From NCBI GenBank assembly GCA_965208835.1, contig OZ242358.1, forward strand, positions 704,001 through 768,000: a DNA stretch of 64,000 bases, in the 5' to 3' direction. Under the pieces are notes generated by a model that was given only the letters and a program-made list of their open reading frames with translations, was not told the DNA's origin and ran no database searches. A program made the translations under genes and the position numbers. This DNA is from Candidatus Latescibacterota bacterium. GTDB lineage: Bacteria; Latescibacterota; UBA2968; GCA-2709665. This document shows positions 8,335 to 43,113 of this stretch, piece after piece (position 1 is the first letter of the stretch; every line of letters starts with the position of its first letter).

Positions 8335-11300
8335 ATGGCATTCTCACCTGCGATTCATGAAACGGATCTTGGGCTGGGGGTCTGTATTTCGGCGCCTGCG
8401 GGGGATTCCTACCAGAATGCGGCCGGCAGTCTGAAGGCGGTCCTCGAGGATACCATTTCGGGGCGCGTGGACGTGCTGCCGGACGATAAACTGGATGCAG
8501 ACGGCCGGCACGTGATCGCGCTGGGGAACATGATGGACAGCGCGTTCCTGCGAACCCTCTACTTCCGGGCTTACGACCTGACCGACCGCGTGTGGCCGGG
8601 TCCCGGCGGGCGGGTGGTGCGCACAATGCCCCATTCGTTGGCAGAAGTGGGGCACGTTGTGGTGGCGGGCGCGAGCAGCGCGGAGGACATTGGCGATGCG
8701 GCCGGGGCGCTGGGTCGTTCGATAGCGGAAGGTGGACCGATACTGCCGTTCCAATATCAGGTAGATCCGGGCACATGGTCCGATCTGTACGTGGAGCCGG
8801 CGAATGAGTTGCTGGCCAAGAGCAACCGGGACATCGAGCAGGAATCCATCGGCGGAGGATCGGGTGACTGGACCTATATGATGGTTATCGCCGATATCGG
8901 GATGCTCGCGGTGCAGACGGGAAACGACAGGTTGATGTCGATGTTCTGCCATCAGATCCGCCACTTCGCCCGCACGCGCTGGTTCGAGCGGACGCTGGAG
9001 GACCCCACGTTGATCCACGGGTTCATCCGCGTGCTTCTGCTGCCGTTCACGATTCTTGAAAACCATCCCTCGCTTCCCGCCGAACAGCGGGAGGAGACGC
9101 TCGAAACGCTGCTGGGACTCTTCAGGTCCGCGGAGGGTGCAGGCAATGCCGGACTGTTGAGTTGCGTGGGCGTGGACCGGGTGCGCCAGAACCATCAGAC
9201 CCGTTCCGCGCTCGATCTGTTTTACGGAGGCCGGTATTTCCACCAGGTACACGGGCTCGCAGAGGGGTTGGCGTGGATGAAGCTGGCGGAGGTCTTCTTT
9301 GCGCCGCAGATGGGATCGAACAAGCCGGTGTGCGACTCGTGGGGCCATCAATGGGGGGCCTCTCTGTTCAACACGGCTGACTACGCGCTGGCGGCAGGGA
9401 AGATGGAATACTTTTCGAGCCCGCCCTACCTGGAGGGCGTGGACCGTGCGCTCATGGCACACAGCAACCTGGAACGAGGACCCGAACAATACTGCCGTAT
9501 GGCCGCGGCGGTAACGGGCAATGACGAATACCTGCAGCTTTGTGAATCCATTGACGAAGGCGCGGCGGCGGAACGGACCATTCGAGGCGCCGAGGAGCCC
9601 CTGCGGACCTGGGTGACCGGGCGACGGGCGGCGGTGCCGGAACGGTTGGGCCGGGTCGGCGTGGCCCCCCTGTCGCGATTGTTCTACGATTCTCTCGAAG
9701 AATACACCACGTTTGCGCCGGTGAACGGCATCTATCTGAGGAATCTGCCCTACGAACAGACGTTCGACAAGGTGTTCTTCCGTTCCGGATGGACGGACCA
9801 GGACGACTATCTTCTGCTGGACGGGATCTCGGGGGGCTCGCACTCCTATCAGGACGGCAACTGCATCGTGCGTTACACCAGCCGCGGCGCCTCCTGGTTC
9901 AGGTTTGCCGGAGGCCACCAGCCAGCGACGGTCCGGGACTACACGGGCGTGAGCGTATCCGTAGACGGCGCCGGCCCGGGGTGCGAGTCCAGGTACGCGG
10001 CCCTGCGGTACCTGCACGAAGGGCAGAACCTTGCCGCGGCAGGCACGTCGATGACCTATCCTGAGCAGGGCGACTGGTACCGGCATATCGTGTACAGCCG
10101 TGACGGGTGGTTTCTGGTGATCGACGAGGTGTGGCCCGTGGTGGCGGGAGAGTTTCTCGTGGAGTGTCGGTGGCACGTTCTGGGCGACGCGACCCTGACA
10201 GACGGCCGGTTGCAGTCGGTTCAGGGCGACGCGCAACTGAACATGCGCCACGCGGGGAGCGGGCGCCAGGAACTGGCGGCATCGGACTACTGGTGCGCGG
10301 AAGACCATTCGCGGTGGGTCCAGCGTTCCCTGGCGGCGCTCCGGCCTGGAACGGGGACCCGGATGGCGACGCTGTTCTGGACCGACCCGCTGGGTGATGG
10401 CAGGCATTTCAGTCTGGTCGAGGAGAAGAACGGTTATCTCGTCGAAGGGGGCCGCGAGCCCGTCACGGTTGCACTTACGGAGACCGCTGAAACCCCGGAG
10501 GTTTCTGCATCCGTCGCAACGCTGCCCACGGCCGGTCGGGTTGCGGATGGGTCGGATTCCGCGCCATTTCAGATTGCCGGCGGCAAAGCGAAGCCCGTCT
10601 GGCGAACCCGGTGTGCGGATGCCGTGACGGCGCTGGATATCGGAACGGACAAATGGTTCGGCGGCGACGGCGGCGGGCTGACAGCGTTTAATTCTAACGG
10701 CGATCAACTGTGGAAACGCGAGATCGACGGCGGCGTCTGCGCCATTGCGGCCATGGACGATGGCGGCGCTGCCGCGGGCGGCGGCGGGGAAACCGTACAC
10801 CGGCTGGATGCATCGGGAGAAACCCTCTGGTCCTATCGGATCGAATGGCAGCCGATGAACTGGGACAGCTGGTCCAGGAAGAACTGCGTGGTTTTGAGCC
10901 TCGCGTCGGGCGACATCGACGGCGACGGACGGGAGGAGATTCTGGCGGGGTGCGCCGACCGTCACGTATACGCATTCGACCACGGGGGCAGCCTGCTCTG
11001 GCGTTCCCCCTGCCAGTGGGGACCGCCGGTGTGTCTGGATACCGCGCGGCTGACAGATGGGCCGGAGCGGGAGACGCTCGCCGGCCTGGCGGACCCGGCC
11101 ATTCACGGGCACACGCTGGTTTTCGGGAAGGACGGGACGCTCTGGAAGCCCCTTAGGAGGCCGGACATCGTCAGCTGGTCGATTCCCTCCTGGTCGCGCT
11201 GCCTGCGCGTAGCGGACCTGAACGGGGACGGCCGGGACGAAGTGATCAGCGGGGTGGATACCAATCACCGTCAGTTGATCGTCTACGGGCGGGACGGCGA

Positions 11301-11649
11301 GGTGATCTGGGACGCGGACGCGGGCGGCGCCGTGCTCGCCGCGGAGGTCCGGGACGGACGCCTGTATGCCGGGGCGTCCAACGGTTTCGTGCAGTGCTTC
11401 GACGCCGCCGGCAGCCGCCTGTGGCGGCGGCTTCTCGTAGAGCCCGTGGCCGGCCTGGCGCCGGCTGGAGATGGAGGATGCCTGGCGGCACTGAGAGGCG
11501 GGCGCGTGGTGTACCTCGACGGCTCCGGAGAGATCCGGACGACTGACGCCGGGGAGTCTGAAGCGACGGTTACAGACTGGACATCCGGCTGGCCGGAAGG
11601 GGGACTGCTGGTGGGCCGAAAGGATGGCGCGCTCGAACTCTTCCGGTAG
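8335..11649 (+). CDS. Lyase-like (RQNH helical + heparinase II/III-like) protein with C-terminal FG-GAP/PQQ-like beta-propeller, paralog 1
   Basis: VIALGNMMDS N-domain, VRQNHQT, FDKVFFRSGW...YLLLDGISGGSHSYQDGNCI, RHIV...WFLVIDEV...ECRWH, then GDIDGDGREEILAG, DLNGDGRDEVISG and repeated G..LW motifs. No signal peptide. Confidence 0.85.
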   Translation: MAFSPAIHETDLGLGVCISAPAGDSYQNAAGSLKAVLEDTISGRVDVLPDDKLDADGRHVIALGNMMDSAFLRTLYFRAYDLTDRVWPGPGGRVVRTMPHSLAEVGHVVVAGASSAEDIGDAAGALGRSIAEGGPILPFQYQVDPGTWSDLYVEPANELLAKSNRDIEQESIGGGSGDWTYMMVIADIGMLAVQTGNDRLMSMFCHQIRHFARTRWFERTLEDPTLIHGFIRVLLLPFTILENHPSLPAEQREETLETLLGLFRSAEGAGNAGLLSCVGVDRVRQNHQTRSALDLFYGGRYFHQVHGLAEGLAWMKLAEVFFAPQMGSNKPVCDSWGHQWGASLFNTADYALAAGKMEYFSSPPYLEGVDRALMAHSNLERGPEQYCRMAAAVTGNDEYLQLCESIDEGAAAERTIRGAEEPLRTWVTGRRAAVPERLGRVGVAPLSRLFYDSLEEYTTFAPVNGIYLRNLPYEQTFDKVFFRSGWTDQDDYLLLDGISGGSHSYQDGNCIVRYTSRGASWFRFAGGHQPATVRDYTGVSVSVDGAGPGCESRYAALRYLHEGQNLAAAGTSMTYPEQGDWYRHIVYSRDGWFLVIDEVWPVVAGEFLVECRWHVLGDATLTDGRLQSVQGDAQLNMRHAGSGRQELAASDYWCAEDHSRWVQRSLAALRPGTGTRMATLFWTDPLGDGRHFSLVEEKNGYLVEGGREPVTVALTETAETPEVSASVATLPTAGRVADGSDSAPFQIAGGKAKPVWRTRCADAVTALDIGTDKWFGGDGGGLTAFNSNGDQLWKREIDGGVCAIAAMDDGGAAAGGGGETVHRLDASGETLWSYRIEWQPMNWDSWSRKNCVVLSLASGDIDGDGREEILAGCADRHVYAFDHGGSLLWRSPCQWGPPVCLDTARLTDGPERETLAGLADPAIHGHTLVFGKDGTLWKPLRRPDIVSWSIPSWSRCLRVADLNGDGRDEVISGVDTNHRQLIVYGRDGEVIWDADAGGAVLAAEVRDGRLYAGASNGFVQCFDAAGSRLWRRLLVEPVAGLAPAGDGGCLAALRGGRVVYLDGSGEIRTTDAGESEATVTDWTSGWPEGGLLVGRKDGALELFR

Positions 11650-11856
11650 ACTCAATTCCAGAAAAAGCAACGCCGCGCCGCCGGGAATCCATCCGAAACG
11701 GGTCGAAATGGTCGTCCGGAAGGATGTATCTTCCGTTCACGTCAAGTCACCTGAAGTTTCCTGGCAATCCGACGTCAAATCGCCTCTATCCGCTTGCCTG
11801 TATTCGACTTTGCGTCCCGGAAGAAGTGACGAATCAATGCTGTCAGACTCGACCTC

Positions 11857-13833
11857 CTATTGCTGGTCCAACACAATCACACCGCAACCGATACGCGCGC
11901 CGGCATTGCCCGAGGGTTGTGAGACGAAATCATCCGCGCCCGCATGGACGACGATCGCCTTGCCGATGACATCAATCGTTGAGCCGGTATCGATCTCCCA
12001 GAGATTCGTCGTTAATTCGATTCCGCCTGCGCCCTGGTCATTGACACTCGCATTGCCAATGTCGCCGAGGTGGAATTCACCTTCGCCCCATTTGCCGTGC
12101 GCAACGCCCGTGGGATTCCAATGCCCCCCGGCCGATGTCCCGTCCTGCGCACTGCAATCGCCCTTTGCGTGGATATGGACGGCGTGTTCGCCCGGGGACG
12201 CATTCGCCAGCGAAACCACCAGTTGGATGTTTTCGCCAAATTGTGTGAAAGTCGCTTTTCCGGACAATCCGCTGTCATTCGTCTCGCCGATTATCGCGGT
12301 CGCAACCGCGGCAGGCGTTGGATCGAAAACCACAAGTGCGCCGTTCTTGACAGTCAATACCGTCGGGTTGTAGACCCCGTCGCCAACGTTATCGAAAGAA
12401 AACGGACCCAAAACCGTGTCGAAATTCCGAATATTGCGCAACGCATCCCGAATATCTTCGGATTCCGGAGTCTCAGATCCCGATGCAGAGCGGGCATCTG
12501 AAATTGCTTGCGTCAAGATATAAACACTGGCGTAGGATTGTGCGGCAATCACATTGGGTTCAACCCCGTATCTTGACGTATAATTCTCGACGAAGGCGCG
12601 ATTACCAGGTGTATCGGCCATGCTGCTCCAGGCCGTAAACGCAATAACACCCTCGGCAGCGACGCCTGCACGCTTTATGCCGTCTGACGTCAGCACCGAA
12701 GACGTGATAAAGGGAACCTCGGCAGGAATACCGACTTGCCGTCCCTGAATCAGAATATCAGCCATGTCTACAGCTTGAGAAGAAATAAAGACGGCATCCG
12801 GATTCAACGCTCTTATCCGAGTCAGTTGCGCGGAAACATCGGCATCGGCGGTCTGGAAAGTCTCTGTCGTCACAATGTCAACGCCGCCTTCCGTGAGCGC
12901 GTTCCGAATGACCTCGTCGCTGCTTCGGGAAAAAACATCCGCGTCATCGAATATCGTCGCCACCTGCTTGTAGCCGAGCGCCTCCCGCGTCTTCTCGATG
13001 CCGCCGGGCACGTACCGATCTACGGTGAGACTCGCGCGAAAGAGAAAGTCCCCCATCTCACTGATACCTCGTGCGGCAGAAGTCGGACCGAGTGCCACAA
13101 CACGGTTTTCTTGCGCGATGGGAAAGGCCGCCACGGCCTGACTTGAAGTACGAGGACCGAGAATGGCGAGGACGCCATCTCGATGAATCAGCTTCTTAAA
13201 AGCCTCAACGGCACCATCTATCGTGCTGCGGCTATCTTCAATGATGAACTCGAATCTCGGCTCACCGTGCGCGTTATTGATCTCTTCAAGAGCCATTTCA
13301 GACGCGTTTCTCATTGGCGGACGGGGCGAACTGAACACACCGCTCAGATGCGGAACAAGACCGATGGCAATCACACCTATCCTGGATGATCGCGCCACCC
13401 GCGCCTTTCCGCCAACGGGCAACGCGACCAATGTCCTGTAACCATCATTGACCGGGATGCTGGACCAGTGGCCCGTCACGGCGCCATCCTGAGACGCGCG
13501 CGCTTGAAAATAACCCGTCGCCGGACTGGATATCTCCACTGTAACGCGCCCCTTGGCATCGGTCGTTCCCGACCACCGATAATCCGGCTTCCGCCCGGCA
13601 ATGGAACGCGCAAATTCGACCATCACATGTGCCGCGGGCGCGCCATCTCGCGACACAGACGCCTCCACCAGTGCCCCAGATGCACGACCATCGCCCGCTG
13701 CCGCCACCTTGCTCAGCGCGCGGCCAATCCGGTCATCCGACCCGGAAGACTCCAAAACGCGTTCGCGGCCGCAACTCCATGCAAGACCTGCGGCAAGAGC
13801 GACCATCATGACACTGCGAATCCTGTGCGACAT
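11857..13833 (-). CDS. Lipoprotein: N-terminal Ig-like module + LivJ-type (Peripla_BP_6) substrate-binding domain + C-terminal Cu/Zn superoxide dismutase
   Basis: Lipobox LAWSC. SBP motifs IGLVPHLSG, ALEEINN, ILGPRTSS, FLFRASL, IRALNPDAVF, TVLGPFSFD. SodC domain HAVHIH..GDCS..SAGGHWNP..HG..HLGDIGN..AIVVHAGADD..GNAGARIGCGVI. Confidence 0.88.
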   Translation of the reverse strand: MSHRIRSVMMVALAAGLAWSCGRERVLESSGSDDRIGRALSKVAAAGDGRASGALVEASVSRDGAPAAHVMVEFARSIAGRKPDYRWSGTTDAKGRVTVEISSPATGYFQARASQDGAVTGHWSSIPVNDGYRTLVALPVGGKARVARSSRIGVIAIGLVPHLSGVFSSPRPPMRNASEMALEEINNAHGEPRFEFIIEDSRSTIDGAVEAFKKLIHRDGVLAILGPRTSSQAVAAFPIAQENRVVALGPTSAARGISEMGDFLFRASLTVDRYVPGGIEKTREALGYKQVATIFDDADVFSRSSDEVIRNALTEGGVDIVTTETFQTADADVSAQLTRIRALNPDAVFISSQAVDMADILIQGRQVGIPAEVPFITSSVLTSDGIKRAGVAAEGVIAFTAWSSMADTPGNRAFVENYTSRYGVEPNVIAAQSYASVYILTQAISDARSASGSETPESEDIRDALRNIRNFDTVLGPFSFDNVGDGVYNPTVLTVKNGALVVFDPTPAAVATAIIGETNDSGLSGKATFTQFGENIQLVVSLANASPGEHAVHIHAKGDCSAQDGTSAGGHWNPTGVAHGKWGEGEFHLGDIGNASVNDQGAGGIELTTNLWEIDTGSTIDVIGKAIVVHAGADDFVSQPSGNAGARIGCGVIVLDQQ

Positions 13834-14084: not shown

Positions 14085-17000
14085 ATGATCTTCCGCAAAC
14101 CTGTTCACGCGACGGATCTCACTGCCGGCGTCTGTATTTCGTCGCCCGGTGACGAGCCGTATCAGGCCGCTGCGAAGCGCCTTCAGGCGGCCCTGCACGG
14201 TGTGCTTTCGGAAAGCGTTGAAATCCTGCCGGACGCGCGGCTCGATTCGGGCGGGCGTCACGTAATCGCGTTGGGGAACATGATGGACAGCGCGTTCCTG
14301 AAGACGCTGTATTTCCGGGCATTCGATCTGACGGACCGGGTCTGGCCGGGCCCCGGCGGGTGGGCGATCCGTACCGCGCCGCACTCCCTGGACGACGCGG
14401 GGCACGTGGTGGTCGTGGGCGTGAGCGGCGCGGAGGACGTTACCGGGGCGGCGGATGCCCTCGGCAACACCATCGCCGAGGCGGGTATCACGCTTCCGTT
14501 CCAGTACCGCGTGCAGCCGGGGAGGTGGTCGGATCTGTATCTGAGGCCGGCGCGGGAGCGGCTGGAGGCCGGCGACACCCACCTGGAGCGGGAATATACG
14601 AGCGGGGCGGGCGACTGGACCTATATGCGCGCGATCGGGGACATCGGGATGCTGGCGGTCCGGACCGGGCAGGAGGCGTTGATGGAGATGTTCTGCCGGC
14701 AGGTCTGCCAATTTGCGCGTACGCGGTGGTTTGAGCGCCATCTGCCGGACCCTCCGCAGATTCACGGGTTCCTGAGGACCATGCTGCTTCCGTTCACGAT
14801 TCTGGAAAACCATCCGTCCATCCCTGCAGAAATGCGAGAGGAAACCCTGGACGCCCTCCTGGCGCTGTACCGATCGGGGGAAGGGGCCGGGAACAACGGA
14901 TTTCTGAGCCACGTCGGAGTGAAAAGGGTTCGGCAGAACCACCAGACCCGGTCGGCGCTGGACCTCTTTTACGGGGGACGGTATTTCCACCAGGTGCATG
15001 GGTTGGCCGAAGGCAGGGCGTGGATGAAGCTTGCGGAGGTCTTTTTTGCGCCGCAGATGACGTCCAACAAGCCCGTGTGCGACTCGTGGGGCCATCAGTG
15101 GGCCGCTTCATTGTTCAATACCGCGGATTTTGCGCTGGCGTCGGGGCGGTTGGATTACGTTTCGAGCAAGCCGTTCCTGGAGGGCGTGGACAGGGCGCTG
15201 ATTGCGCACAGCAACCTGGAACGAGGCCCGCAGCAGTACTTTCTGATGGCCGCGACGGCCACGGGGAACGATGAATACCTGCACCCCTGCGGCGTCTCGG
15301 ATGAGGATGCCCTGGCCGAACGAACCATAAAGGGACCGGAGGAACCGCTTCGGGCGTGGGTGACGGGGCGCCGGGCGCTGTCGCCGGAGAGGCTGGGACG
15401 GGTGGGTGTGGCGCCGCTCTCGCGGCTGTTCTATGATTCGCTCGAGGGTTCCAGCGGGTTTGCGCCCGAGGGCGTGTATCTGCGCGACGTGCCGTTCGAG
15501 CAGGCATTCGATAAGGTATTCTTCCGGTCCGGCTGGTCGGATGACGACGACTATCTGCTGTTGGATGGCATCTCGGGCGGGTCTCATTCGTATCAGGACG
15601 GCAACTGTATTGTGCGGTATACGGCGCGGGGACGGAACTGGTTCGGAGATCGCGTGGGTCCGGCCTCGGTGCGTGACCACAACGGAGTGAACATCGCAGT
15701 GGACGGGGCGGGCCCCGGACGCGAGTCCCGATACGCCGCCTTGAAATACGTGGAGGAGGGTGAAGCGTTTTCGGTGGCGGGCACTTCGATGCGATATCCC
15801 GGTCAGGGCGACTGGTATCGCCATATCGTATACGGCAGAGCGGGGTGGTTTCTCGTGGTGGACGAAATTTGGGCGCAGGCGGCGGGAGAGTTCCTGGTTG
15901 AGGGCCGCTGGCACGTGCTTGGAGTGGCAACGCTGTCGGATGGGTTCCTGCGCTCGGTCCAGGGGAATGCGATACTGAATATGCGGCACGCTGGAAGCGC
16001 TTCGCAGGATCTGGTGCGGGTGACTTCGGCCCTGGAAAAGGGCGGTATGCGATGGATCCAGCGCTCGTTGAGGACGCTTCAGCCGGGCGAAGGCGTGAGG
16101 TACGCGACCCTTTTCTGGAGTGACGATCAGGAGCAGGCCCGGTCGTACACGCTGGAACCGGAGGGGTCGGGCTATCGCATCGAGGGGCAGGGCAGGACGG
16201 AGACGGTTTCGTTCGCGGCGGAAAGCGAGGGCCCGAACCTGGAAGCCGATGCAGCCGTACTCCCAACGGCAGGCAGCATCGTCGAAACAACGGATCCGCG
16301 GCCGTTTGGCATCGCAAAGGGCGACGCGACGCCGGTGTGGCGCGGCGCATGCGGCGGAGCGGTGGCGTCGGTCGATGCGTGGGAGGGGGGCTGCTTCGCA
16401 GGCGACGACAGAGGAGGCATCACAGCGTTCGACCTGAACGGCGGTATACGATGGACCCATTCGATATCGGGAGGCGTCCGGACGGTGCTGGCCCTTGCCG
16501 ACGGCGGGGTCGTGGCCGGCGGGGAGGCGGAAGCCGTACACCGGCTGGACGGATCGGGCCGTGAGGTATGGTCCTGTCAACTCGAGTGGCAGCCGATGAA
16601 CTGGGACTACTGGACGTGGCTGAACTGCAAGGTGCTGAGCCTGGCGGCCGGCGATATTGACGGCGACGGGAAAGACGAGATTCTGGCCGGATGCGCGGAC
16701 CGCCACGTCTACGCGTTTAACGAGGATGGCTCGCTGCTGTGGCGCTCCGCCTGCCAGTGGGGTCCGCCCACGTGCTTGGCGGTGGCGCGGCTGCGGCAAG
16801 GGGACCGACGTCAGGTGCTGGCGGGGATGGCGGACCCGTCGATTCACGGATGCGTCCGGGTATTCGAATCAGACGGGGCGTGTGAGCAGACGCTGTCGCG
16901 GCCGGATATCATGAGCTGGTCGATTCCGTCGTGGTCGAAGTGCCTCGACGTGGCGGACGTAGACGGGGATGGATGGGAGGAAGTACTCAGTGGCGTGGAT

Positions 17001-20400: not shown

Positions 20401-20760
20401 GATCGTCTATGGCGGGGACGGCACGTGTTGTGGGATGCGGACGCGGGCGGCGCCGTGCTGTCAGTGGCCTATGCTGAAGGGCGCATATTCGCGGGCGCCT
20501 CGAACGGTTACGTACAGTGTTTCGAAACAGGTGGCGATAGGCTGTGGCATGGTTTTCTGGCAGCGCCGGTGTTCGGCCTGTCGCCGGGAGAGGGAGGCGG
20601 TTGCCTGGTGGCGCTTGGAGATGGAAGGACGGTGGGCCTGGACGGCAGCGGCGAGATTGGCTGGTCGAGTGGTGGGAATGCGATAACCGCGGCGGCTGCG
20701 CGTCCGGAGGGCGGGATACTTGTAGGCAGGTTGGACGGAACGGTGGAGTGTTTCGCGTAG
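17468..20760 (+). pseudogene. Lyase-like/beta-propeller protein, paralog 3, frameshifted near 20423 (pseudogene or sequencing error)
   Basis: Matches paralogs 1 and 2 up to HRQLIVYGGDG. The homologous C-terminus (VLWDADAGGAV...GTVECFA*) continues in another frame at 20425..20760, so one base is missing (ggc ac- gtg). Confidence 0.8.
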
Positions 20761-29896: not shown

Positions 29897-30292
29897 CTGG
29901 AATGATCGAGCGACTTCCGCTGATTGTGCCTGCGCCGAGGTCTGGTCGGCAGGCAGGCCCCTCAGAAGTGGGTAGCCGGGAGACGTAAGACGGTAGAAGA
30001 AAGGCGGGTAGAGGTGAGAAAATCGGGTAGACGCAAGACGTAAGACGGTAGATGAAATCCTTGCCAGATGAGATATTCCTCCTTGCCTTTGGCACGATAG
30101 GAATCCTCACAAGGCAGGTAATCTCTCCCGTCTCCCGTCTCCCCTCTCACCAGGTGGTGGGCTGTGGTGTGGTCTTCTACCCTCTACCGGCTCCCGTCTC
30201 ACCGCTTTTGGTATACCCTCTACCCGCATTCAGGCTCATTGTGGCCAATTTGACTGTTGTCTTTTTTAATTTGAGGCTGATTGACGATATCC

Positions 30293-32263: not shown

Positions 32264-32282
32264 AAGACAGGAGAAGCGTAAC

Positions 32283-33545: not shown

Positions 33546-34412
33546 ATGGAGCGGGAGAAACGACGGCTGGCCTACCTCTACGTTGCCCCCGCGGCGGTGT
33601 GGTTGTTTCTGTTTATGGGGTATCCCATTCTGGACGTGATGGAGACGAGTCTCTATCACACGTCCTACAAGGGAGAGACGTTTGCCGGGTTAGGGAATTA
33701 CCTCGGACTCCTGCAGGACGATCTCTTTCTGCTTGTGCTGAAGAACACGGCCTTGTGGACGGCCCTGGCGGTTGCGATGAACGTGGGATTGGGTCTGGGC
33801 GTGGCGCTGTTGTTGAGCCGGGGGTCGGTTTTGAGCGAATGGGTCCGGGGCATGCTGATCCTGGCCTGGGCCATGCCGCTTGTGGTGGCGGCGATCACCT
33901 GGAAGTGGATGTACAACGGCGAGTACGGGCACCTGAATTCGCTTCTGCTGGGCCTGCAACTCATCGATGCGCCGGTTCAGTGGCTGACGGACGCTTCAAC
34001 GGCCTTTGCCGGTGCGCTGGTTGCCCGGTTGTGGACGGCCCTGCCTTTCACGACGTTCGCATTCCTGTCGGCGCTGCAGTCGATCCCCGGCGATCTGTAC
34101 GAGGCTTCCACGATCGACGGGGCTACGAAATTTCGACAATTCCGCCACATCACCCTGCCGCTCCTGCGTCCGGTTACGCTGGCGGTTCTGCTGGTCAGCG
34201 TGATCTGGTCCTTCAACAGCTTTGTCTTCATCTACGTTATTACGGCGGGAGGCCCGGCAAACCAGACCCAGATTATGGTCACGGAGATCTACAGGCGCGC
34301 GTTCGGCTATTTCAACTTCGGCCAGGCCGGCGCCCTCACCGTTCTGGCGTTCTTCCTGCTGCTTGGAATCAGTCTTCTTCAATGGCGGGTGTTCTACAGG
34401 CGGGAGGTATAG
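33546..34412 (+). CDS. Sugar ABC transporter permease (MalF/UgpA-like)
   Basis: EAA loop LQSIPGDLYEASTIDGA..FRHITLPLLRP and TAGGPANQT. Confidence 0.92.
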   Translation: MEREKRRLAYLYVAPAAVWLFLFMGYPILDVMETSLYHTSYKGETFAGLGNYLGLLQDDLFLLVLKNTALWTALAVAMNVGLGLGVALLLSRGSVLSEWVRGMLILAWAMPLVVAAITWKWMYNGEYGHLNSLLLGLQLIDAPVQWLTDASTAFAGALVARLWTALPFTTFAFLSALQSIPGDLYEASTIDGATKFRQFRHITLPLLRPVTLAVLLVSVIWSFNSFVFIYVITAGGPANQTQIMVTEIYRRAFGYFNFGQAGALTVLAFFLLLGISLLQWRVFYRREV

Positions 34413-35251: not shown

Positions 35252-35277
35252 GCGCGTTCAGGCCCCGCGTCCGTTTT

Positions 35278-36393
35278 TTATTCGGGTGTATCCCGGAGCA
35301 GCGCGGCTTCGGTCTCCCGGTCGAAGAAGTGGACGTAGGAGAGGTCGAATGCGAGCCGGACCTCCTCGTCCACCGAGGGGACGGGATCCGCGGTCACCCT
35401 GGCCACGCAGGAGGCGCGTCCGACGGTCAGGTAGAGCAAGGTCTCATGGCCCATCGGTTCGACGAGGTCGACATTCGCGGAGACGTTTTCTGATTCCCCG
35501 GGCCCGCGGGCTGAAGACGCGTAGTGGATGTGCTCGGGGCGGATTCCAAGGATGACGCGGCGGCCGATGTGCCCTGTCAGGCTGTCCCGGTGCCGGTCCG
35601 GTATCGGGAGGCGGAGGCCGTCTCGCCGGAACGCCAGGCCGGCATCCCGGACGAGTTCGCCCTCGAGGAAATTCATTGCCGGGCTGCCAATAAAGCCGGC
35701 GACGAACCGGTTCGCGGGTCTCCGGTACAGGTGGACCGGGGCTCCAACCTGCTGGATCCGTCCGTCTTGCATGACGACGAGGCGGTCGCCCATGGTCATC
35801 GCTTCGACCTGGTCGTGGGTGACGTAAATCATGGTCGCGTTGAGCCGTGCATGCAGCTTGCTGAGTTCCGTTCGCATCTGAACCCGTAGTCTGGCGTCCA
35901 GGTTGGACAGGGGCTCGTCGAATAGGAAGACCTTCGGCTTCCGAACGATAGCACGGCCAAGGGCTACCCGCTGACGCTGTCCGCCTGAGAGTTCCTTCGG
36001 CTTTCGGTGCAGCAGGTCCCGGATTCCCAGGATGTCCGCCGCCTCGCGCACCCGGTCGTCGATCTCCTCTCTGGGATATTTTCGCAGTTTCAGCCCGAAG
36101 GCCATGTTCCGGTAGGCGTCCATGTGGGGGTACAGGGCGTAGTTCTGAAAGACCATCGCGATGTTCCTGTCCTTGGGCGGAAGGTCGTTCGCCAGGCGTC
36201 CGTCAATGAAGATTTCGCCCCCGTCCGCCTCCTCCAGGCCCGCAATCAGCCGGAGCGTGGTCGATTTTCCGCATCCGGACGGCCCCACCAGCACGACAAA
36301 TTCGCCGTCCTCGACGCGAAGGCTGAAGTCGTCTACAGCGACGGTGTTCCCGTTGTAGATCTTTCTGGCGTTTTTGAGGACTACGGTTGCCAT
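35278..36393 (-). CDS. ugpC: Sugar ABC transporter ATPase (MalK/UgpC family)
   Basis: GPSGCGKSTT, VFQNYALYPH, LSGGQRQRVALGRA, FDEPLSNLD, YVTHDQVEAM and a TOBE domain. Confidence 0.93.
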   Translation of the reverse strand: MATVVLKNARKIYNGNTVAVDDFSLRVEDGEFVVLVGPSGCGKSTTLRLIAGLEEADGGEIFIDGRLANDLPPKDRNIAMVFQNYALYPHMDAYRNMAFGLKLRKYPREEIDDRVREAADILGIRDLLHRKPKELSGGQRQRVALGRAIVRKPKVFLFDEPLSNLDARLRVQMRTELSKLHARLNATMIYVTHDQVEAMTMGDRLVVMQDGRIQQVGAPVHLYRRPANRFVAGFIGSPAMNFLEGELVRDAGLAFRRDGLRLPIPDRHRDSLTGHIGRRVILGIRPEHIHYASSARGPGESENVSANVDLVEPMGHETLLYLTVGRASCVARVTADPVPSVDEEVRLAFDLSYVHFFDRETEAALLRDTPE

Positions 36394-36553
36394 CCCGACC
36401 CTTCCGAGGCGTGTGCCGCGATCGACCGGGTAAAGTAAGCACATTCTATCGCAATAACAAGCTCCCCGGGCTTCCTGCCGGCCTGGATCTCGCCGATGGT
36501 CCGGCCCTTCTGGCAGGCACGGACCGGGGTGTGATCACCGCATTGAGTCGGAC

Positions 36554-39307
36554 ATGATGCGTGTCATTTCGAAATCAGGATGGGCAGGAGCCTGTGCACT
36601 GACCGCCTCAATGGCGGTTTCATGGAGTTCGGTTTTCGGGGGTGAGCCTGTGAACATCAGGGATCTGCTGGGAGACCGGGGGATCAGCGGGGCGTTGCTA
36701 GAGGCCGAACGCACGCATCCCTACCTCTTCTTCTCTGCCGAAGACGTGCCGCGTCTGCGCGAAATGGCCGGGCGGGAACCGTACCGGACGTGTGCCGAGG
36801 GGATTGTCCGGGCGGCCAGGCTGACGTTGAGAAACCCGATTCCCAAAGAACCGCCCGCCGGAGCGTCCCACAGCCGTTTACCCGATGGCAGTTACGACGA
36901 GTCGTTTCTGAAGGCGACCTACGATTTTCTGTCCTATGCGTACGCGATGCAATACTACGGCCCGTTGTACGCGTTCGCGTACCTGCTGACGGAGGAGGAG
37001 GTCTTCGCCAGGCGCGCCAAGGCGTGGGCGCTGGCGTACGCGGGCTGGGAGAACTGGGGTCCGGCGGCCGATCCGTGGGATATGGAAGCGGCCATGATTC
37101 TGTCGGGAGCGGTGATCGTCTACGATTGGATTCCCGGTCGATTCTCCCGGGAGGAACGCGAACGTCTGCTTGCGGGACTGCGCGAGAAGGGGCGGAGACT
37201 GTGCGAGAAGGATGCGTACTGGCTGACGCAGGACCCGGCGGCACGGCGCGGGTCGCTTGCGAATAACCACAGGTGGCGGAGCATACCGCTTGAGGGACTG
37301 GCGGGGCTGGGGCTGCTCTACGAGGTCGAAGAGGCGCGGGACTGGCTGGATATGGGGTTGGTGCTCACGCGGGACTACCTCCTGCCGGCGGCCTATGGCA
37401 GAGACGGAGAGCGGATGGAGGGACGCGGCTGGCTGGGGGTCTGCCTGAGTGACGGGGGCCGGTTTATGGAGGCGCTGGCCCGAAACGGAGGGCCGGACCT
37501 GTTCGATACCGGGCCGTTGCGCCGGCTGTCGCACTTTCTGATTTTCGGGATGGAGATGTACAGCTCACGGGGGCACTATAACGATCGGGCGGGCCTTCTG
37601 GCGCACGCCGGCAGACTGCGGGATCCTGCGCTTCAGTGGCTGGCCCTGGAGCACGGTCTGGGACCCGATTTGAAGGGATACCCGGCGTACTGGTATAACC
37701 GGGATAATGCCCTTTACCAGCCTGAAACCCCTTATACGGTTTCCCTGCGGTGGGATGCCGGGACCGGCCGGATGCAGATCGAAGTGAATGGCGTCCCGCG
37801 GGACCGGCAGGATATTGAACGGGTGGAAGGGATCGACATGGTCACGCTTCGGGTTGAGGGCGATCGGGTCGAGATCGGTTCTCTTGAGGTCCTTGACGCC
37901 GCCGGGGGTGTCGTGGAATGCCTGGCCGGACCGGTCGCGCTGACGGAAGAACGGGGGGAGACGGCCCTCGGATTCGCCAGCTTGCGCGCCGGCGAGATCC
38001 GGGCTTCACTGCGTAAGTACCGATCGGACACCGGGCAGGCAATGCTGATGCTGATGTCCGGAGGGCGGCGTGTAAGGGGCATCGCATTTACAGGTGAACA
38101 CGAAATCGCCAAGGCAGTTGAGGAGATGGACGGAACGTATACGCTGGGAGTTGCGGCGGCGAAGGGGCTCTATTTCCACGGGCCCTGGGAGTTCCTGTTC
38201 TACGACGAGAGCCTGCCGCCGGCGGCTCCGAAGAATGACGTGACCGGGTTTCACTTCCGGGACCTTGGGCTGGTTAAGTTATACGACACGCTTCACGCGG
38301 AAGGGGTTAACGTCACGTTCACGTCCGGACCGGAAGTGAGTAAGGAACAGGGAGACAAGAATGCGTTTACGCTCACCGCGTTCGGGGAGCGTCTGTTGTC
38401 GCCGCCGCGGACACCGAAGACGGGCGAAGCGGCGCTGACGCAGGCGCAGTACGATCTGACGGCCTGGTACCAGGGCACACCGGGGCGAAACACGATTCTG
38501 GTGGATGGACGGGGACAGCCGACGGTGCACGAGGAAAGCCCTGTGCCGCGCGAGTACGAATCGCAATGGCTGGGACCGGAGGACGTTGCGAAGAGTGGAC
38601 GGATCGAGGAGACCTATTTCTCAAGGGACTACGATTACGTAAGGGGGGAGGCGGCGCACGCGTACCGACCCCTGCTGGATACCTATCGCCGCCATCTGAT
38701 GTTTTTAAAGCCGCAGGGCGACCCGGACCTGCGGTACCTGGTGCTGTTCGATGAGATCGAAACCGCCGGAAAGCGGCCCAGATCGATCGAATGGCGGCTG
38801 CTGAGCCCGTACGGCGAGGTGACAGTCGCCGGCGAAACGTCCAGAATCGAGGGACGCGCGGCATGGATGCACATCAGACATTTCTCGCCTGAGCCGTCCA
38901 CCGTCAGGATCGATTCCACGCCCGCCCCACGGGATGCGGATCGGCAGCCCTATCTGCGGTTTCCGACGCCGGGGCCGGTGAAGAGGGTGCACTACCTTCA
39001 CCTGCTTCAGCCGCTGCGTTCCGCTGAGGCTGAACCGGTTTCAGCGACGCGGGTGATGGCGCACGGTGGGATCGGCGTCCGGGTAAGCGCACCGGATGTG
39101 ACCGCTCTGGCGGTCTTCAGAACGGGAGATGAAAACGTCACCGCGGGCGGGCTGACCACGGACGCCCTCGCCAGTCTGGTGCGATGGGGACCGGACGGCG
39201 GCGGGTCGGTAGTCGTCCACGGCGGGACGTTTGCCGAGCTTGCCGGGAGACGCGTCTTCAGTTCCGAGGATGCGATGAGCGTTCTGGTCGAGCTACCGGT
39301 TGAGTAA
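36554..39307 (+). CDS. Secreted DUF4962/alginate lyase-like + heparinase II/III-like polysaccharide lyase with an inserted beta domain
   Basis: Signal peptide, HPYLFFS, YLLTEE..FARRAK.W, IVYDW, LANNH, DKNAFTLTAFGE, NTILVDGRGQ, DYVRGEA..AY, YRRHL.F, YLVLFDEI. Confidence 0.75.
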   Translation: MMRVISKSGWAGACALTASMAVSWSSVFGGEPVNIRDLLGDRGISGALLEAERTHPYLFFSAEDVPRLREMAGREPYRTCAEGIVRAARLTLRNPIPKEPPAGASHSRLPDGSYDESFLKATYDFLSYAYAMQYYGPLYAFAYLLTEEEVFARRAKAWALAYAGWENWGPAADPWDMEAAMILSGAVIVYDWIPGRFSREERERLLAGLREKGRRLCEKDAYWLTQDPAARRGSLANNHRWRSIPLEGLAGLGLLYEVEEARDWLDMGLVLTRDYLLPAAYGRDGERMEGRGWLGVCLSDGGRFMEALARNGGPDLFDTGPLRRLSHFLIFGMEMYSSRGHYNDRAGLLAHAGRLRDPALQWLALEHGLGPDLKGYPAYWYNRDNALYQPETPYTVSLRWDAGTGRMQIEVNGVPRDRQDIERVEGIDMVTLRVEGDRVEIGSLEVLDAAGGVVECLAGPVALTEERGETALGFASLRAGEIRASLRKYRSDTGQAMLMLMSGGRRVRGIAFTGEHEIAKAVEEMDGTYTLGVAAAKGLYFHGPWEFLFYDESLPPAAPKNDVTGFHFRDLGLVKLYDTLHAEGVNVTFTSGPEVSKEQGDKNAFTLTAFGERLLSPPRTPKTGEAALTQAQYDLTAWYQGTPGRNTILVDGRGQPTVHEESPVPREYESQWLGPEDVAKSGRIEETYFSRDYDYVRGEAAHAYRPLLDTYRRHLMFLKPQGDPDLRYLVLFDEIETAGKRPRSIEWRLLSPYGEVTVAGETSRIEGRAAWMHIRHFSPEPSTVRIDSTPAPRDADRQPYLRFPTPGPVKRVHYLHLLQPLRSAEAEPVSATRVMAHGGIGVRVSAPDVTALAVFRTGDENVTAGGLTTDALASLVRWGPDGGGSVVVHGGTFAELAGRRVFSSEDAMSVLVELPVE

Positions 39308-39441
39308 GCAATGGAGAGAATTCGTGCGGCGGGCGTATCCGGGCGACGACGTCTGGTTCGGACCGGTGGTTATCGGAAAGGGATTAGCGGCAGGAAGCGA
39401 GAGCGGGTTCGAGACCCGAGGGGGCCAGGAAGGAATGCGCG

Positions 39442-42400
39442 ATGGCAGGAGATCGGATTGATACGCTGAAGGAGATGCATCTGACCACGGACCTCAGCGA
39501 AGGGGCGGAGATCGTGGCGCCGGTAGAGCCGGAATGGGCGCGTCTCGGTCGGCGGCTGCGTGAGATGATCCGCGCGCATGCGGGCGTGGACCTGCCGATC
39601 GTGGATCCTGAAAGCCTGGCGCCCCTGCCGGATGGCCGGCACCGCGTGCTGCTGGGCAACGCGATGGTCAACGGCTCCATCATGGCGCTTTACCGGCGGC
39701 AATACGCGTTCCTGGACGACTGGTATCCAGGCGGGGACGGGTATGCGGTCCGGACGGTGCATAATCCGGAAAATTGCGGCTATAACGCGTTGCTGGTGGG
39801 CGGCAGCACGCTGGAGGGCGCGGCCAATGCGGTCGAGGCGCTGGAAGGCGTACTGGAAGAGACCGGGGGGCGGCTGAGATATACCAATCGGTCGCGGTCC
39901 GAGGTCCACGAGACATTGCTGCCGGAGATGACGCCGGAGGCGTTCCGGGAGTGGGTGGCGGCAATGTACCGGGACAATCTCAGTTACTATCCCGTAGAGC
40001 AGGGCACCTTCCTGGGTCTGACCCACCACCTGACCCACGATCCCGGCTGCGCGCGGATGTTCCGGGATGCGCTCTTCTACTACGAGGACCTGGTGAGGAA
40101 TCGCTATGACGGGAACTGGCTGTTCGAGCATATGTTGTTCATCTATTCCTGGGCGTGGCGGCTGTTCCTTGTCTGGGACCTGATCGAGGAGAGCGATGCG
40201 TTTACCGACGCGGAACGCCTTCGAATCACCAATGTGTTATGGGGGCTCGCAAACTACGTGGCCCGCACACGCTATTTCAAGGCCGAAACGCCGCCGCCGC
40301 TGGAGATCCGGCAGAACCACTGGACGTTCGCGGGGCTGAGCGGGTCGTTCTGCGCGGGTTATTTCGAATCCTACTACGGGATCACGCGATTCGAGAAGCA
40401 GGTCCGGTTCTCAAAGGCGGTTTTCGACGGCCAGGCGAACAGCTACAAGCCGAACGACGATGCGGGCGGAGGCTGGTGGGGCTACTGCTGGCTGGCGCCG
40501 TATCACCAGGTGATCTACGATTTGAAGCGCGACGATTTTCGCTTCCTGGAGAACGGCCAGCTCCGGACGATTGCCGACTACGGCATACAGGTGACGGACA
40601 ATCTCGGCGTTCCGGTGAGCTTCGGCGACATGTGGTCCTATATCGAGCAGGGGCGGTACGCCGTGGCGCTCAAGAACAAGACGATATCGCTCGAGCTCGC
40701 GATGGCCCTATGCACAGCAGCCTGGTACTATGAGGACGGGAGCTACCTCTGGGCGCTGGACTGGATGGGCGGCGCTCCGTATCCCGGCTGCTATTACCGT
40801 GCGCTGCCGAAGCGGGCGCCCGATCGGCTGGCAGGAGTCACCGTGGCGCCGTTCAACCGTTCGCTTTACGAGTGGGTGGAGCGGCACGCGCGCGGCGGCG
40901 CGAACGTGCCGATCGAGGAAGCGTTCGACAAGCTGGTAATGCGCGGAGGATTCGACAGCGATGACGAATACCTCCTGTTGGACGGGACGTCAACCTTCGC
41001 CCACGGACACGAGGACGGAAACTCGATCGGGCGGCTCACGTGGAAGGGGCGGATGTGGCTGGCGGATCTGGATTATATCTGGAAACGGCCCCGGCACCAC
41101 TCGTCTGTCGTGTCCATCTGTGACGGTGAAACCGTGGAGATGCCGCCCCTGGTGGCGTTGACATGGGCGGAGGCGTCCGGAGAGACCGCCTTCACGCGTA
41201 CGGTCGTGCCGGAATACAACGGACTGGACTGGACACGGGATATCTTCTGGGTGAGGGGCGGGTTCTTTCTGATCGCGGACTCGCTGAGGCTGCTCAAGGA
41301 CACGGATTACGATCTGAAGTGCCTGTGGCGGACGCTTGGCGAGGTCCGTCAGGAAGACCGAGAACTGAGGGTGGGACAGGAGGGCGTGTATTTCCGGCTC
41401 CTGAATGCGGATGATTCGGAAAAGTCGCTTCTGACGGAGGAAGCCCGCGTTGCGGGAACCGACCCCTACGAATCCTATGCGTTTGCCGACGGTCCGATCC
41501 GGATCTTCAGCCAGCACAAGGCGCTCCACGGGCGGCCCGGACACGTTGAACGGTATTTCAACCTGATGGTGGCGGGGTCGGAAGCGGAGATCGATGCGTG
41601 GCGGATCGAGCGCATCGGAGAGGGCAGGGTCAGGGTGGCGCACCCGGACGGTCCGACCGTATTCGGCGTTGACGGCGGGGAAACGCGAATAGGCGGGCTC
41701 AGGGTCGCCGCCGCCGCTTTCGCGTTGACCGAATCGAACCTGATACTGCTTGACGCGACGGGTCTGTGGGCGAATGGCGCGGTGTTTGAAAGCGACATGC
41801 CGGTGCACATCGTACTGTATCCGGGCGAGAGAGCGGGTGAAGTCCGCGCAAGCAAGGAGACCCGGGTTCGGACCGAAGGGATCTGTTTTGGCGGGGAGGT
41901 GGAACCAGAGGCGGACAAACTCACGGCCGGAACCCATCGGATCAGCCTGGAACCCGGTCTTGAGGACGTCCTGCGCGAGGCCGTCCGGTCCGGGACGCCG
42001 TACGAGCATCGCAGAGCGCCGGGAATACACGGTTTCGTGCCGAAAGATACGTCCCTCAGGCGTTTGTGGGAGGCGCAGGTCCGGGGACCGGTCCGATGCG
42101 CCGATGCGAAGGCTGACTCGATTGCGGTTGGGACGGGCAGCGGGCAGGTACTCGTGCTGGACCCCGACGGGCGGATTCGCTGGACGCGCGAGACCCGCGC
42201 CGAAGTGCGCGCCGTGCATCTTGCGGATTTGAAGGAAGGACGGCTTCTGGCCGGTGGCAGGGACCGCGCGCTGACGCTGTTCGATTCCGGAGGCGGGGTC
42301 TGCTGGAAGCGCCGGTTTTCGGAGTCGCACGGGGTGGATCAGAATGTGAACGCGGTGACGACGGCAGATCTGACCGGTGACGGAAATCCGGTGATCCTGA

Positions 42401-43113
42401 CAGCCACGGACGGGTGGCTGGTGTGGGCGCTGACGTCGGACGGAGAGGAAGTTTGGCAGCGGCAGATCGAACACCACGCCGCGCGGTCGATGGTCGTCAG
42501 CGACGTGGAGGGAGACGGCAGGCAGGAAGTCCTGGTGGGCGCTGAATATTACACGTCGAATCTGCTGGAGGCCGACGGGAGGATCCGGTGGACGGTAAAC
42601 GGGGGCCCCTGTTTCTCGGCGCTGGCCCTCGCGGACCTGAATGGCGACGGCGTGAAGGAATCGGTCTACGGCGCCATGGACGGAAACGTCTACACGGTGG
42701 ATTCGACTTCGGGAGAGGTCCTCTGGACGGCCAACCTGGGAGACGATGTCCGGCACGGCGTGGCGGTTCCCGAAAGAGGGTTTGCCGCAGGGAGCGAAAG
42801 CGGGCACGTGGCGCTGTTGAGCAGTACGGGGAAGAAGCGCTGGCGCCGGGACCTCGACGGCGGGGTGACCGGTCTGATTCTTCTCAAGGACGACAAAGCG
42901 GAGACGATAGTCGCCGGGACCTCCGAGGGGTGGGTTGTGTTTCTTTCTCTCGACGGAGAGGTCGTGGGCAGCCACCGCATGGAAGCCGGCGTGACCGTGT
43001 TGACCCGCCTTGCGCTGCCCGGATTGTCCGGTCTGCTGGTAGGGACGCACGGCGGCGGCGTGAGTGCCGTCAGTCCCGGTCCGGCGCCTTTCGATTTGCG
43101 CATCAATCCCTGA
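39442..43113 (+). CDS. Lyase-like/beta-propeller protein, paralog 5
   Basis: VLLGNAMVN..ALYRR..DDWYPGGDGY, IRQNHW, AFDKLVMRGGF..YLLLDG.STFAHGHEDGNSI, then a propeller with DLTGDG, DVEGDG and DLNGDG. Confidence 0.85.
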   Translation: MAGDRIDTLKEMHLTTDLSEGAEIVAPVEPEWARLGRRLREMIRAHAGVDLPIVDPESLAPLPDGRHRVLLGNAMVNGSIMALYRRQYAFLDDWYPGGDGYAVRTVHNPENCGYNALLVGGSTLEGAANAVEALEGVLEETGGRLRYTNRSRSEVHETLLPEMTPEAFREWVAAMYRDNLSYYPVEQGTFLGLTHHLTHDPGCARMFRDALFYYEDLVRNRYDGNWLFEHMLFIYSWAWRLFLVWDLIEESDAFTDAERLRITNVLWGLANYVARTRYFKAETPPPLEIRQNHWTFAGLSGSFCAGYFESYYGITRFEKQVRFSKAVFDGQANSYKPNDDAGGGWWGYCWLAPYHQVIYDLKRDDFRFLENGQLRTIADYGIQVTDNLGVPVSFGDMWSYIEQGRYAVALKNKTISLELAMALCTAAWYYEDGSYLWALDWMGGAPYPGCYYRALPKRAPDRLAGVTVAPFNRSLYEWVERHARGGANVPIEEAFDKLVMRGGFDSDDEYLLLDGTSTFAHGHEDGNSIGRLTWKGRMWLADLDYIWKRPRHHSSVVSICDGETVEMPPLVALTWAEASGETAFTRTVVPEYNGLDWTRDIFWVRGGFFLIADSLRLLKDTDYDLKCLWRTLGEVRQEDRELRVGQEGVYFRLLNADDSEKSLLTEEARVAGTDPYESYAFADGPIRIFSQHKALHGRPGHVERYFNLMVAGSEAEIDAWRIERIGEGRVRVAHPDGPTVFGVDGGETRIGGLRVAAAAFALTESNLILLDATGLWANGAVFESDMPVHIVLYPGERAGEVRASKETRVRTEGICFGGEVEPEADKLTAGTHRISLEPGLEDVLREAVRSGTPYEHRRAPGIHGFVPKDTSLRRLWEAQVRGPVRCADAKADSIAVGTGSGQVLVLDPDGRIRWTRETRAEVRAVHLADLKEGRLLAGGRDRALTLFDSGGGVCWKRRFSESHGVDQNVNAVTTADLTGDGNPVILTATDGWLVWALTSDGEEVWQRQIEHHAARSMVVSDVEGDGRQEVLVGAEYYTSNLLEADGRIRWTVNGGPCFSALALADLNGDGVKESVYGAMDGNVYTVDSTSGEVLWTANLGDDVRHGVAVPERGFAAGSESGHVALLSSTGKKRWRRDLDGGVTGLILLKDDKAETIVAGTSEGWVVFLSLDGEVVGSHRMEAGVTVLTRLALPGLSGLLVGTHGGGVSAVSPGPAPFDLRINP

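Follow-up and report, generated by a model that had tools for sequence, protein, structure and literature searches.

Five paralogous proteins with a heparinase II/III-like toroid and sandwich and a C-terminal propeller in a Latescibacterota genome

The five genes and their predicted domains

The stretch of DNA analysed here, referred to as the window, comprises 64,000 nt of contig OZ242358.1 (positions 704,001 to 768,000, forward strand) from a Candidatus Latescibacterota bacterium, and it carries five paralogous genes, P0001 to P0005, encoding large multidomain proteins (paralogs 1 to 5; Table 1). An initial annotation, made from the letters alone, had grouped them as a five-member family sharing an RQNH motif and a downstream FDK block. 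When a family hidden Markov model (HMM) was searched against all six-frame open reading frames (ORFs) of the window, exactly five members were found, all on the + strand and all with both motifs. The GC content at third codon positions of these ORFs is 0.75-0.79, as in real genes (window GC 62%), and their products are alignable end to end, with identities to P0001 of 66% (P0002), 63% (P0003), 25% (P0004) and 26% (P0005). RQNH occurs once per protein (contexts VRQNHQT in three, PRQNHEL and IRQNHWT) and forms a single aligned column block despite only 25-26% identity among the proteins; from composition, ~0.0013 occurrences would be expected per 1100 aa. The second block, FDK..R.G[WF]...LL.[DC]G..[GF].H.[YH].D, is likewise present in each of them. 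Paralog 3 carries a frameshift near nt 20420, after which the conserved C-terminus resumes in another frame up to a stop at 20758-20760. In the region concerned (window 20380-20760) the frame shifts after ...QLIVYGGDG, and the ORF as listed ends at 20686 with an unrelated Cys/Arg-rich tail.

P0001 was modelled by AlphaFold2 with 43 aligned homologues. The model has a mean predicted local distance difference test score (pLDDT) of 91.3 and a predicted template modelling score (pTM) of 0.90, and consists of four domains: an N-terminal alpha/beta domain, an (alpha/alpha) toroid, a beta-sandwich and an 8-bladed propeller. Three of these had been foreseen in the initial annotation, and the fourth, the alpha/beta domain of residues 1-147, had been missed. 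A toroid followed by an antiparallel two-layer beta-sandwich, the arrangement that defines the superfamily fold, is thus present in paralog 1. The annotation had taken this pair for a toroid with a heparinase-like beta domain and had proposed Foldseek as the check; the search of the PDB bears it out, the best matches being polysaccharide lyases (PL) of families PL12, PL15, PL17, PL35 and PL39 together with dermatan-sulfate (DS) epimerase 1 (E 8e-17 to 1e-12, TM-score on the target, TMt, 0.45-0.66). At the top stands PL15 Atu3025 (3a0o, E 8.2e-17, TMt 0.51), and the list includes PL12 heparinase III (4mmh, 5jmd and 4fnv), the PL35 enzymes GAGase II (8khv, TMt 0.66) and GAGase VII (8khw, TMt 0.63), PL17 Alg17c (4ojz, TMt 0.56), exoHep (6lja), PL39 Dp0100 (6jp4) and DS-epimerase 1 (6hzn, E 3.4e-14, TMt 0.55).

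In the case of the propeller, Foldseek returned designed 8-blade proteins (6tjg, TMt 0.86) and BamB, and the Pfam families above cutoff were PQQ_2 (51.3 bits in P0001, 28.5 in P0004 and 64.4 in P0005; cutoff 27.6), Beta-prop_CGLA (37.3 bits in P0002 and 44.9 in P0003; cutoff 26.8) and FG-GAP. The C-terminal propeller had been anticipated correctly, but the Ca-binding-type loops ascribed to it are not general: strict Dx[DN]xDG loops number two each in paralogs 1-3 and one in paralog 5, and paralog 4 has none.

The N-domain modelled in isolation (residues 1-150, from only 5 sequences; pLDDT 81.9) resembles the N-domains of glycoside hydrolase (GH) families GH67, GH115, GH20 and GH84 and of BcsB (Foldseek E 8.9e-6 to 1e-3, query TM-score, TMq, 0.45-0.64), a similarity of fold only, with the GH67 N-domain of 1mqq on top (E 8.9e-6, TMq 0.59). 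Conservation, here and below, was counted in 151 diverse relatives and is given in the numbering of paralog 1. Between residues 64 and 114 of P0001 (window ~8524-8676), G64, Y76, D84, P88, G89 and G92 are each found in 142-149 of the 151. The loop of residues 81-90 has a block pLDDT of 94 in the full-length model vs 62 in the isolated domain; that it is confident only in the full-length model suggests that it packs against another domain, and it may contribute to the active site.

Conserved residues and two clades

The most conserved polar positions lie in the toroid and sandwich. The second half of RQNH is a near-invariant pair (N286 in 143 and H287 in 150 of the 151 relatives); in its first half R284 is found in 114 and Q285 is variable. 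Around the FDK and HxHxD elements, D478 (146), K479 (147), R483 (151), H503 (149) and D507 (145) are similarly retained, as are R252 (145), W581 (147), R583 (149) and D597 (148). In the model of paralog 1, RQNH (R284-H287) sits at the first turn of a helix spanning residues 286-306.

In the related lyases the catalytic residues follow a fixed order, an Asn or Asn-His, a Tyr 52-57 residues on and a His 130-166 further (PMC12088678, PMC11921355). Examples listed in PMC12088678 are exoHep N336/H337-Y390-H555, Dp0100 N186/H187-Y239-H405 and GAGase II N192-Y246-H401, and the eight PL15 enzymes compared in PMC11921355 have a His-to-Tyr spacing of 53-55. The corresponding series is H287-51-H338-165-H503 in paralog 1 and H293-55-Y348-173-H521 in paralog 5, and, judged by position in the sequence, the order and spacing in paralog 1 match those published (PMC12088678). 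The sandwich His in its HxHxD context is present throughout, with H503 and D507 conserved and a spacing of 165-173 vs the published 130-166. The catalytic-type Tyr occurs only in paralog 5 (Y348, at +55); paralogs 1-4 have a His at +51/+52. The Mn site of GAGase II, given as H403/D405/D421/H457 (PMC12088678), is matched in order by H505/D507/D524/H536 of the family. The assumption behind the initial annotation, that PL5, PL12, PL15, PL17 and PL21 all neutralise the uronate with an Asn-His pair, was too broad, since the residue reported for PL15 Atu3025 is Arg314 and that for PL21 is Glu205 (PMC12088678).

Positions 338 and 505 divide the family in two. Of the 151 relatives, 77 have Tyr and 52 have His at position 338; at position 505, 91 have His and 50 have Tyr. 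The combinations (338/505) are Y/H in 72, H/Y in 43, Y/Y in 3 and H/H in 2. Among the 91 relatives with His505, the canonical clade, 72 have Tyr338, and ~15 others have a Tyr one or two residues off, via a small insertion, a displacement that is also seen in paralog 5 (WGYCW). This clade retains D524 (77 Asp, 11 Glu), Y527 (84), H536 (89), H346 (68) and W587 (85). Among the 50 relatives with Tyr505, 43 have His338, and it is this H/Y clade that includes paralogs 1-4. Here position 524 is Ser, Thr or Ala, with Glu in 5 of the 50 and no Asp among the four commonest residues, H346 and Tyr527 are absent, and H536 is kept in 35 only. N286, H287, H503, D507, R483 and K479 are near-invariant in this clade too, with N286, H287, H503 and R483 at 98-100%. 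On a FastTree phylogeny of 152 rows, computed with columns 338 and 505 removed, the combined 338/505 state changes once, and one of four independent pairs was informative. The exchange is therefore a clade signature and not independent covariation.

Family extent, cellular location and gene neighbourhood

When clustered at 50% identity, the family falls into no fewer than 1,417 groups (E<=1e-3), of which 727 are reached at E<=1e-30. In a 90%-clustered database, 70 relatives carry only the names 'hypothetical protein', 'PQQ-binding-like beta-propeller repeat protein' or 'BamB'. The Pfam models expected for a heparinase-like protein, PF07940 (Hepar_II_III_C, 24-bit gathering cutoff) and PF16332 (DUF4962), are not matched by any of the five paralogs at E<=0.1. 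We scanned 37 relatives, taken as every fourth newly returned representative of the 50%-identity cluster search, and seven of them match Hepar_II_III_C at E<=0.01. The sole one to pass the cutoff, P0185 (27.5 bits), has H551-x-H553-x-D555 inside the match. A link to a recognised heparinase-like protein is available within the window itself, where P0076 combines DUF4962 with Hepar_II_III_C: when the 219-row family alignment was compared by hhalign with P0076 plus 10 homologues of it, the toroid matched the DUF4962 region with a probability of 82.9% (E 9.2e-6), placing RQNH opposite ANNH of P0076. Only those 10 homologues, at 64-97% identity, were found, and the P0076 profile is thus shallow. 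An ESM Atlas feature search returned Hepar_II_III_C clusters at 0.92-0.94, which we take as a lead only.

The initial annotation had placed the proteins in the cytoplasm for want of signal peptides. For the five copies this probably holds: none of the ORFs has an upstream start codon, and the N-terminus of P0001 is a strand of the first domain (pLDDT >90), so that a cleaved signal peptide is unlikely. In the wider family many members have hydrophobic N-termini and ~200-aa extensions, and carbohydrate-binding domains occur among the 37 scanned relatives (CBM_4_9 in three, CBM9 in one, F5/8-type C in one); a cytoplasmic location is therefore a property of the window copies and not of the family. 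A hydropathy heuristic for signal peptides was dropped, as it ranked P0076, which has a clearly hydrophobic N-terminus, below P0001.

Neighbouring genes in the window (Table 1) include those of an ATP-binding cassette (ABC) importer of sugar type, P0076 and a UxuA-type mannonate dehydratase, besides a beta-helix/PKD protein and an enolase-superfamily (MR_MLE) protein. The three paralogous proteins with DUF6785 and DUF6784, a domain pair also encoded close to family members in two other loci (L016 and L021), may belong to an uptake system. The two PhyH genes flank the four-gene array of paralogs 1-4, and in two loci from Opitutaceae (L027 and L045) PhyH genes are again found less than 10 kb away from distant members of the family.

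To follow the array elsewhere, we fetched 50 GTDB species loci via patterns specific to the H/Y clade, all of them from metagenome-assembled genomes (MAGs). They come from Latescibacterota/Gemmatimonadota, Opitutaceae and other Verrucomicrobiota, Pirellulaceae and other Planctomycetota, Armatimonadota, Kiritimatiellia and 'Zipacnadia'. By HMM, 12 of these loci have four family ORFs, two have three, three have two and 33 have one; we take the 12 with four to carry the tandem array that paralogs 1-4 form in the window. Most related loci (e.g. L004-L007, L009 and L011) have an unbroken third copy of ~3.3 kb. A gap of 2.2-3.1 kb lies between copies 1 and 2 in the window, where it is occupied by a reverse-strand gene, and in L002, L014 and L015; in L003-L013 the copies abut. 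In seven distant loci, where 75 neighbours were scanned, sulfatase plus SGSH_C was found in four, DUF2961 plus Peptidase_M55 in three, PhyH, MR_MLE and DUF6785/6784 in two each and a glucuronyl-esterase-like gene in one. In three Opitutaceae/Cephaloticoccus loci the family gene is directly preceded, in the same orientation, by an ORF of 267-303 aa without a Pfam match (L027:9047-9850, L045:9144-9947 and L037:8891-9802), for which the window has no obvious counterpart.

Some further genes of the window stand apart from these subjects. One inside the paralog array (11857-13833, - strand) encodes a Peripla_BP_6 domain (E 2.4e-58) fused to a C-terminal Cu/Zn superoxide dismutase (E 1.7e-36). Another (522-1547, - strand) encodes a methyltransferase with Sterol_MT_C (E 1.7e-24) and is sterol C-methyltransferase-like; such genes are uncommon in bacteria. 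The 1055-aa product of 57398-60565 (- strand) has an N-terminal GNAT acetyltransferase as its sole match, leaving ~900 aa without assignment, and the ORFs 49856-52102 (748 aa), 4034-5410, 54527-55858 and 55868-57361 have no assignment.

Table 1. Features of the window and their coordinates (window position 1 is its first letter)
Feature	Coordinates	Strand	Remarks
Paralog 1, P0001	8335..11649	+	1104 aa; H338/Y505 clade
Paralog 1, N-domain	about 8335-8775	+	residues ~1-147; AlphaFold2 model
Paralog 1, toroid	about 8776-9594	+	~13 helices, residues 150-416; AlphaFold2 model
Paralog 1, beta-sandwich	about 9640-10539	+	residues ~440-735; AlphaFold2 model
Paralog 1, propeller	about 10582-11646	+	residues ~756-1103; 32 strands = 8 blades; AlphaFold2 model
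Paralog 1, H338	9346..9348	+	catalytic-type Tyr position in canonical clade
Paralog 1, FDK477-479 ... R483 ... H503-S-Y505-Q-D507 block	9763..9855	+	counterpart of Hepar_II_III_C HxHxD motif
Paralog 2, P0002	14085..17390	+	1101 aa; H338/Y505 clade; HSYQD at 15585-15599
Paralog 3, P0003	17468..20760	+	ORF as listed 17468-20686, 1072 aa; frameshift near 20420
Paralog 4, P0004	20762..24115	+	1117 aa; H/Y clade; HSYDD at 22307-22321
Paralog 5, P0005	39442..43113	+	1223 aa; canonical clade; HGHED at 41002-41016
Paralog 5, residues N292-H293, Y348 (in WGYCW), H521-G-H523-E-D525
RQNH sites, paralogs 1-5	9184-9195, 14931-14942, 18314-18325, 21623-21634, 40309-40320	+
HepII_C fragment	11-487		window start
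PhyH-family dioxygenase	6832..7611	+	upstream of array
Second PhyH-family dioxygenase	24608-25492	+	downstream of paralog 4
DUF6785 + DUF6784 membrane proteins (three)	27911-29896, 30281-32263, 45565-47544	+	~660 aa, paralogous; near ABC-importer genes
SBP_bac_1, ABC sugar-type importer	32235-33536	+
Permease, ABC sugar-type importer	33546-34412	+
MalK-type ATPase, ABC sugar-type importer	35278-36444	-
P0076, heparinase II/III-like (DUF4962 + Hepar_II_III_C)	36554..39307	+	hydrophobic N-terminus
UxuA-type mannonate dehydratase (uronate catabolism)	43064..44140	+	directly downstream of paralog 5

Interpretation and comparison with known systems

We favour, with somewhat better than even confidence, the interpretation that these proteins constitute an uncharacterised family of the heparinase II/III-like uronate-lyase superfamily, furnished with two extra domains and acting in the cytoplasm on imported acidic oligosaccharides, in which paralog 5 is a canonical member and paralogs 1-4 are rewired. 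The toroid and the sandwich, the latter a divergent Hepar_II_III_C domain, would together form the catalytic unit, as in PL12, PL15, PL17, PL21, PL35, PL39 and DS-epimerase. Because order, spacing, modelled helix position and hhalign register all fit the related lyases, N286-H287 at the start of an inner toroid helix would be expected to neutralise the uronate carboxylate, the His possibly also acting as a base, while position 338 would be the Tyr acid/base site, H503 of HxHxD the base supplied by the sandwich, and H505, D507, D524 and H536 a putative metal site. Every one of these predicted catalytic and metal-site residues is retained in paralog 5. Paralogs 1-4 belong to an old clade in which Tyr338 was replaced by His and His505 by Tyr, and the identities at 346, 524 and 527 were lost; their chemistry or substrate has probably diverged, and with the Tyr replaced and a degraded metal site they are perhaps not lyases of the ordinary kind. 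The early reading of all five as toroid lyases or epimerases is partly supported, by the fold, the RQNH/NNH alignment and the spacing, and has to be qualified for paralogs 1-4. With no signal peptides on the five copies and with an ABC importer, the secreted-looking P0076, UxuA and an enolase-superfamily dehydratase nearby, the five most likely work inside the cell on acidic oligosaccharides, which may be sulfated, brought in by the importer, much as exolytic oligo-uronide lyases do; most exolytic oligo-alginate lyases are described as periplasmic or cytoplasmic (PMC11921355). The four-gene array might then be a set of differing specificities, and the propeller and N-domain may have a binding or tunnel-forming role.

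Several observations weigh against this interpretation. The TM-scores to the lyases are moderate, and one of the matches, 6hzn, is an epimerase with the same fold and triad. Residues 1-740 of the five paralogs have no match in Pfam or NCBIfam at E<=0.1; a PDB sequence search with the N-terminal family profile gave no lyase at E<=10, only three chance-level matches, and the full profile found propellers only (35 of 35 matches). A shallow 5-sequence profile had shown no similarity to P0076 in hhalign (probability 0.1). The common cleft for N286, H287 and positions 338, 503 and 505 is inferred from their order and spacing only, and the exchange of Tyr338/His505 for His338/Tyr505 was rejected as covariation proof of a contact because it is a single change on the family tree. 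Paralogs 1-4 are without the Tyr on which each of the characterised families in Table 4 of PMC12088678 depends; all four have Tyr505, position 524 is, by our reading of the five-way alignment, non-acidic in paralogs 1 and 3, and position 536 is Tyr in paralog 1 and Met in paralog 4. Neither a sulfatase, KduI/KduD nor GH88/GH105 was found among the 30 window neighbours scanned, and no biochemical data were found for any family member.

A more specific version of the favoured interpretation can be put forward tentatively, namely that the family is a new PL-type family, with a GH67-like N-domain and a Ca-binding 8-blade propeller as accessory domains around a heparinase-like core, and that in its H/Y clade the catalytic Tyr has left the toroid helix for the second position of HxH and the metal site has been given up. 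Members of this clade would then act on sulfated uronate oligosaccharides taken up by the cell, either by an elimination that needs no metal or by a new reaction, for instance dehydration or epimerisation, with the four-gene array as a cytoplasmic specificity set in bacteria of the Latescibacterota/Gemmatimonadota type.

The place of DS-epimerase 1 among the best fold matches also opens the way to a different reading, which we regard as unlikely: paralogs 1-4, and perhaps the whole family, could catalyse a non-cleaving reaction on uronates, either C5 epimerisation or dehydration at the non-reducing end to an unsaturated sugar. The remodelling of the H/Y clade is coherent and has persisted down to 25% identity and within a four-gene array that is itself conserved, and the ulvan enzyme P29_PDnc, first reported as a lyase, is described as an oligosaccharide dehydratase that does not need the conserved Tyr (PMC8511951), although it is not established that it shares the present fold. 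However, the near-invariant N286, H287, H503, D507, R483 and K479 are equally expected for C5 proton abstraction by a lyase, and the catabolic context of importer, UxuA and dehydratases fits depolymerisation better than epimerisation.

Membership of an existing CAZy PL family or subfamily, hidden because the Pfam and PDB entries that represent it are too distant to be found, is improbable, although in fold and in the order of its triad and metal-site residues the family agrees with PL15, PL17, PL35 and PL39 (PMC12088678). The initial annotation held the arrangement to be unlike any characterised CAZyme, and the absence of residues 1-740 from every Pfam, NCBIfam and PDB-sequence family, down to solved PL structures at E<=10, agrees with that view, as do the uninformative names of the 70 relatives. 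No characterised family member and no published account of this architecture turned up in a literature search outside whose reach lay CAZy and subscription-only papers.

Propellers serve as the catalytic domain in some lyases (PL11, PL24, PL25 and PL42, and also the lambda-carrageenase family). That the propeller is catalytic here, or that the toroid-sandwich of paralogs 1-4 is dead and kept for binding or as a scaffold, would accommodate the lost Tyr and degraded metal site of these copies, the above-cutoff Beta-prop_CGLA matches (to E 1.5e-34 in relatives) and a weak RGL11_C match, but both are very improbable, because the polar residues best conserved across the family all lie in the toroid and sandwich, N286, H287, H503 and R483 at 98-100% in the H/Y clade are not expected of a dead module, the propeller of 148 diverse members keeps only a structural consensus of Gly/Trp/Asp-x-Asp-Gly type, paralog 4 is without Ca-type loops, and 10 of the 150 matches listed are of 682-847 aa (incomplete contigs being possible), among them P0110 (741 aa), whose module runs to residue 733 and leaves no room for a propeller.

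If the favoured interpretation of a heparinase II/III-like family with two extra domains is correct, characterised canonical (paralog 5) and rewired (paralog 1 or 4) members could found a new lyase family. Such members would also bear on whether heparinase-like lyases can replace their Tyr acid/base and their metal site, and on what a propeller adds to a toroid lyase. The host groups of the H/Y clade are believed to be degraders of complex acidic and sulfated glycans, and surveys of carbohydrate degradation would miss family members because these are annotated only as hypothetical or as PQQ-like propellers.

Among known systems, PL15 (Atu3025, 3a0o/3afl; exoHep, 6lja) is the best fold match, and shares with the family the toroid, the antiparallel sandwich and an additional N-terminal domain. 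In exoHep the Asn-His (N336, H337) is followed by Tyr at +53 and His at +165, vs 51 and 165 in paralog 1 (PMC12088678), and PL15 enzymes are intracellular or periplasmic and act on oligosaccharides (PMC11921355), as proposed here. Unlike PL15, with which no sequence similarity was detected, the family has an alpha/beta N-domain of GH67/GH20b-like type and a C-terminal 8-blade propeller, and in paralogs 1-4 the Tyr is changed to His. The PL35 (8khv/8khw), PL17 (4ojz) and PL39 (6jp4) enzymes have the same Asn/Tyr/His triad, 8khv giving the highest TM-score on the target, and H401/H403/D405/D421/H457 of GAGase II run parallel in order to H503/H505/D507/D524/H536 of the canonical clade (PMC12088678). 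These enzymes are of 580-770 aa with two or three domains, whereas the window proteins add two domains, and paralogs 1-4 are without two or more of the metal-site residues. DS-epimerase 1 has the same two-domain fold, but it is a eukaryotic, polymer-acting enzyme of the secretory pathway and has neither the propeller nor the GH67-like N-domain.

Proteins of PF07940/PF16332, such as P0076, are alike in that the family toroid aligns to their DUF4962 region, with RQNH opposite NNH. The propeller, in turn, is comparable to those of BamB and of lambda-carrageenase (PF25292), the latter enzyme having an AlphaFold-based three-domain description (PMC12549532); the likeness extends to the Pfam matches, the 32 strands and the Dx[DN]xDG loops in four of the five paralogs. 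In contrast to those propellers, that of the family is fused C-terminally to a lyase-type module, and in the window copies it is carried by proteins without a signal peptide.

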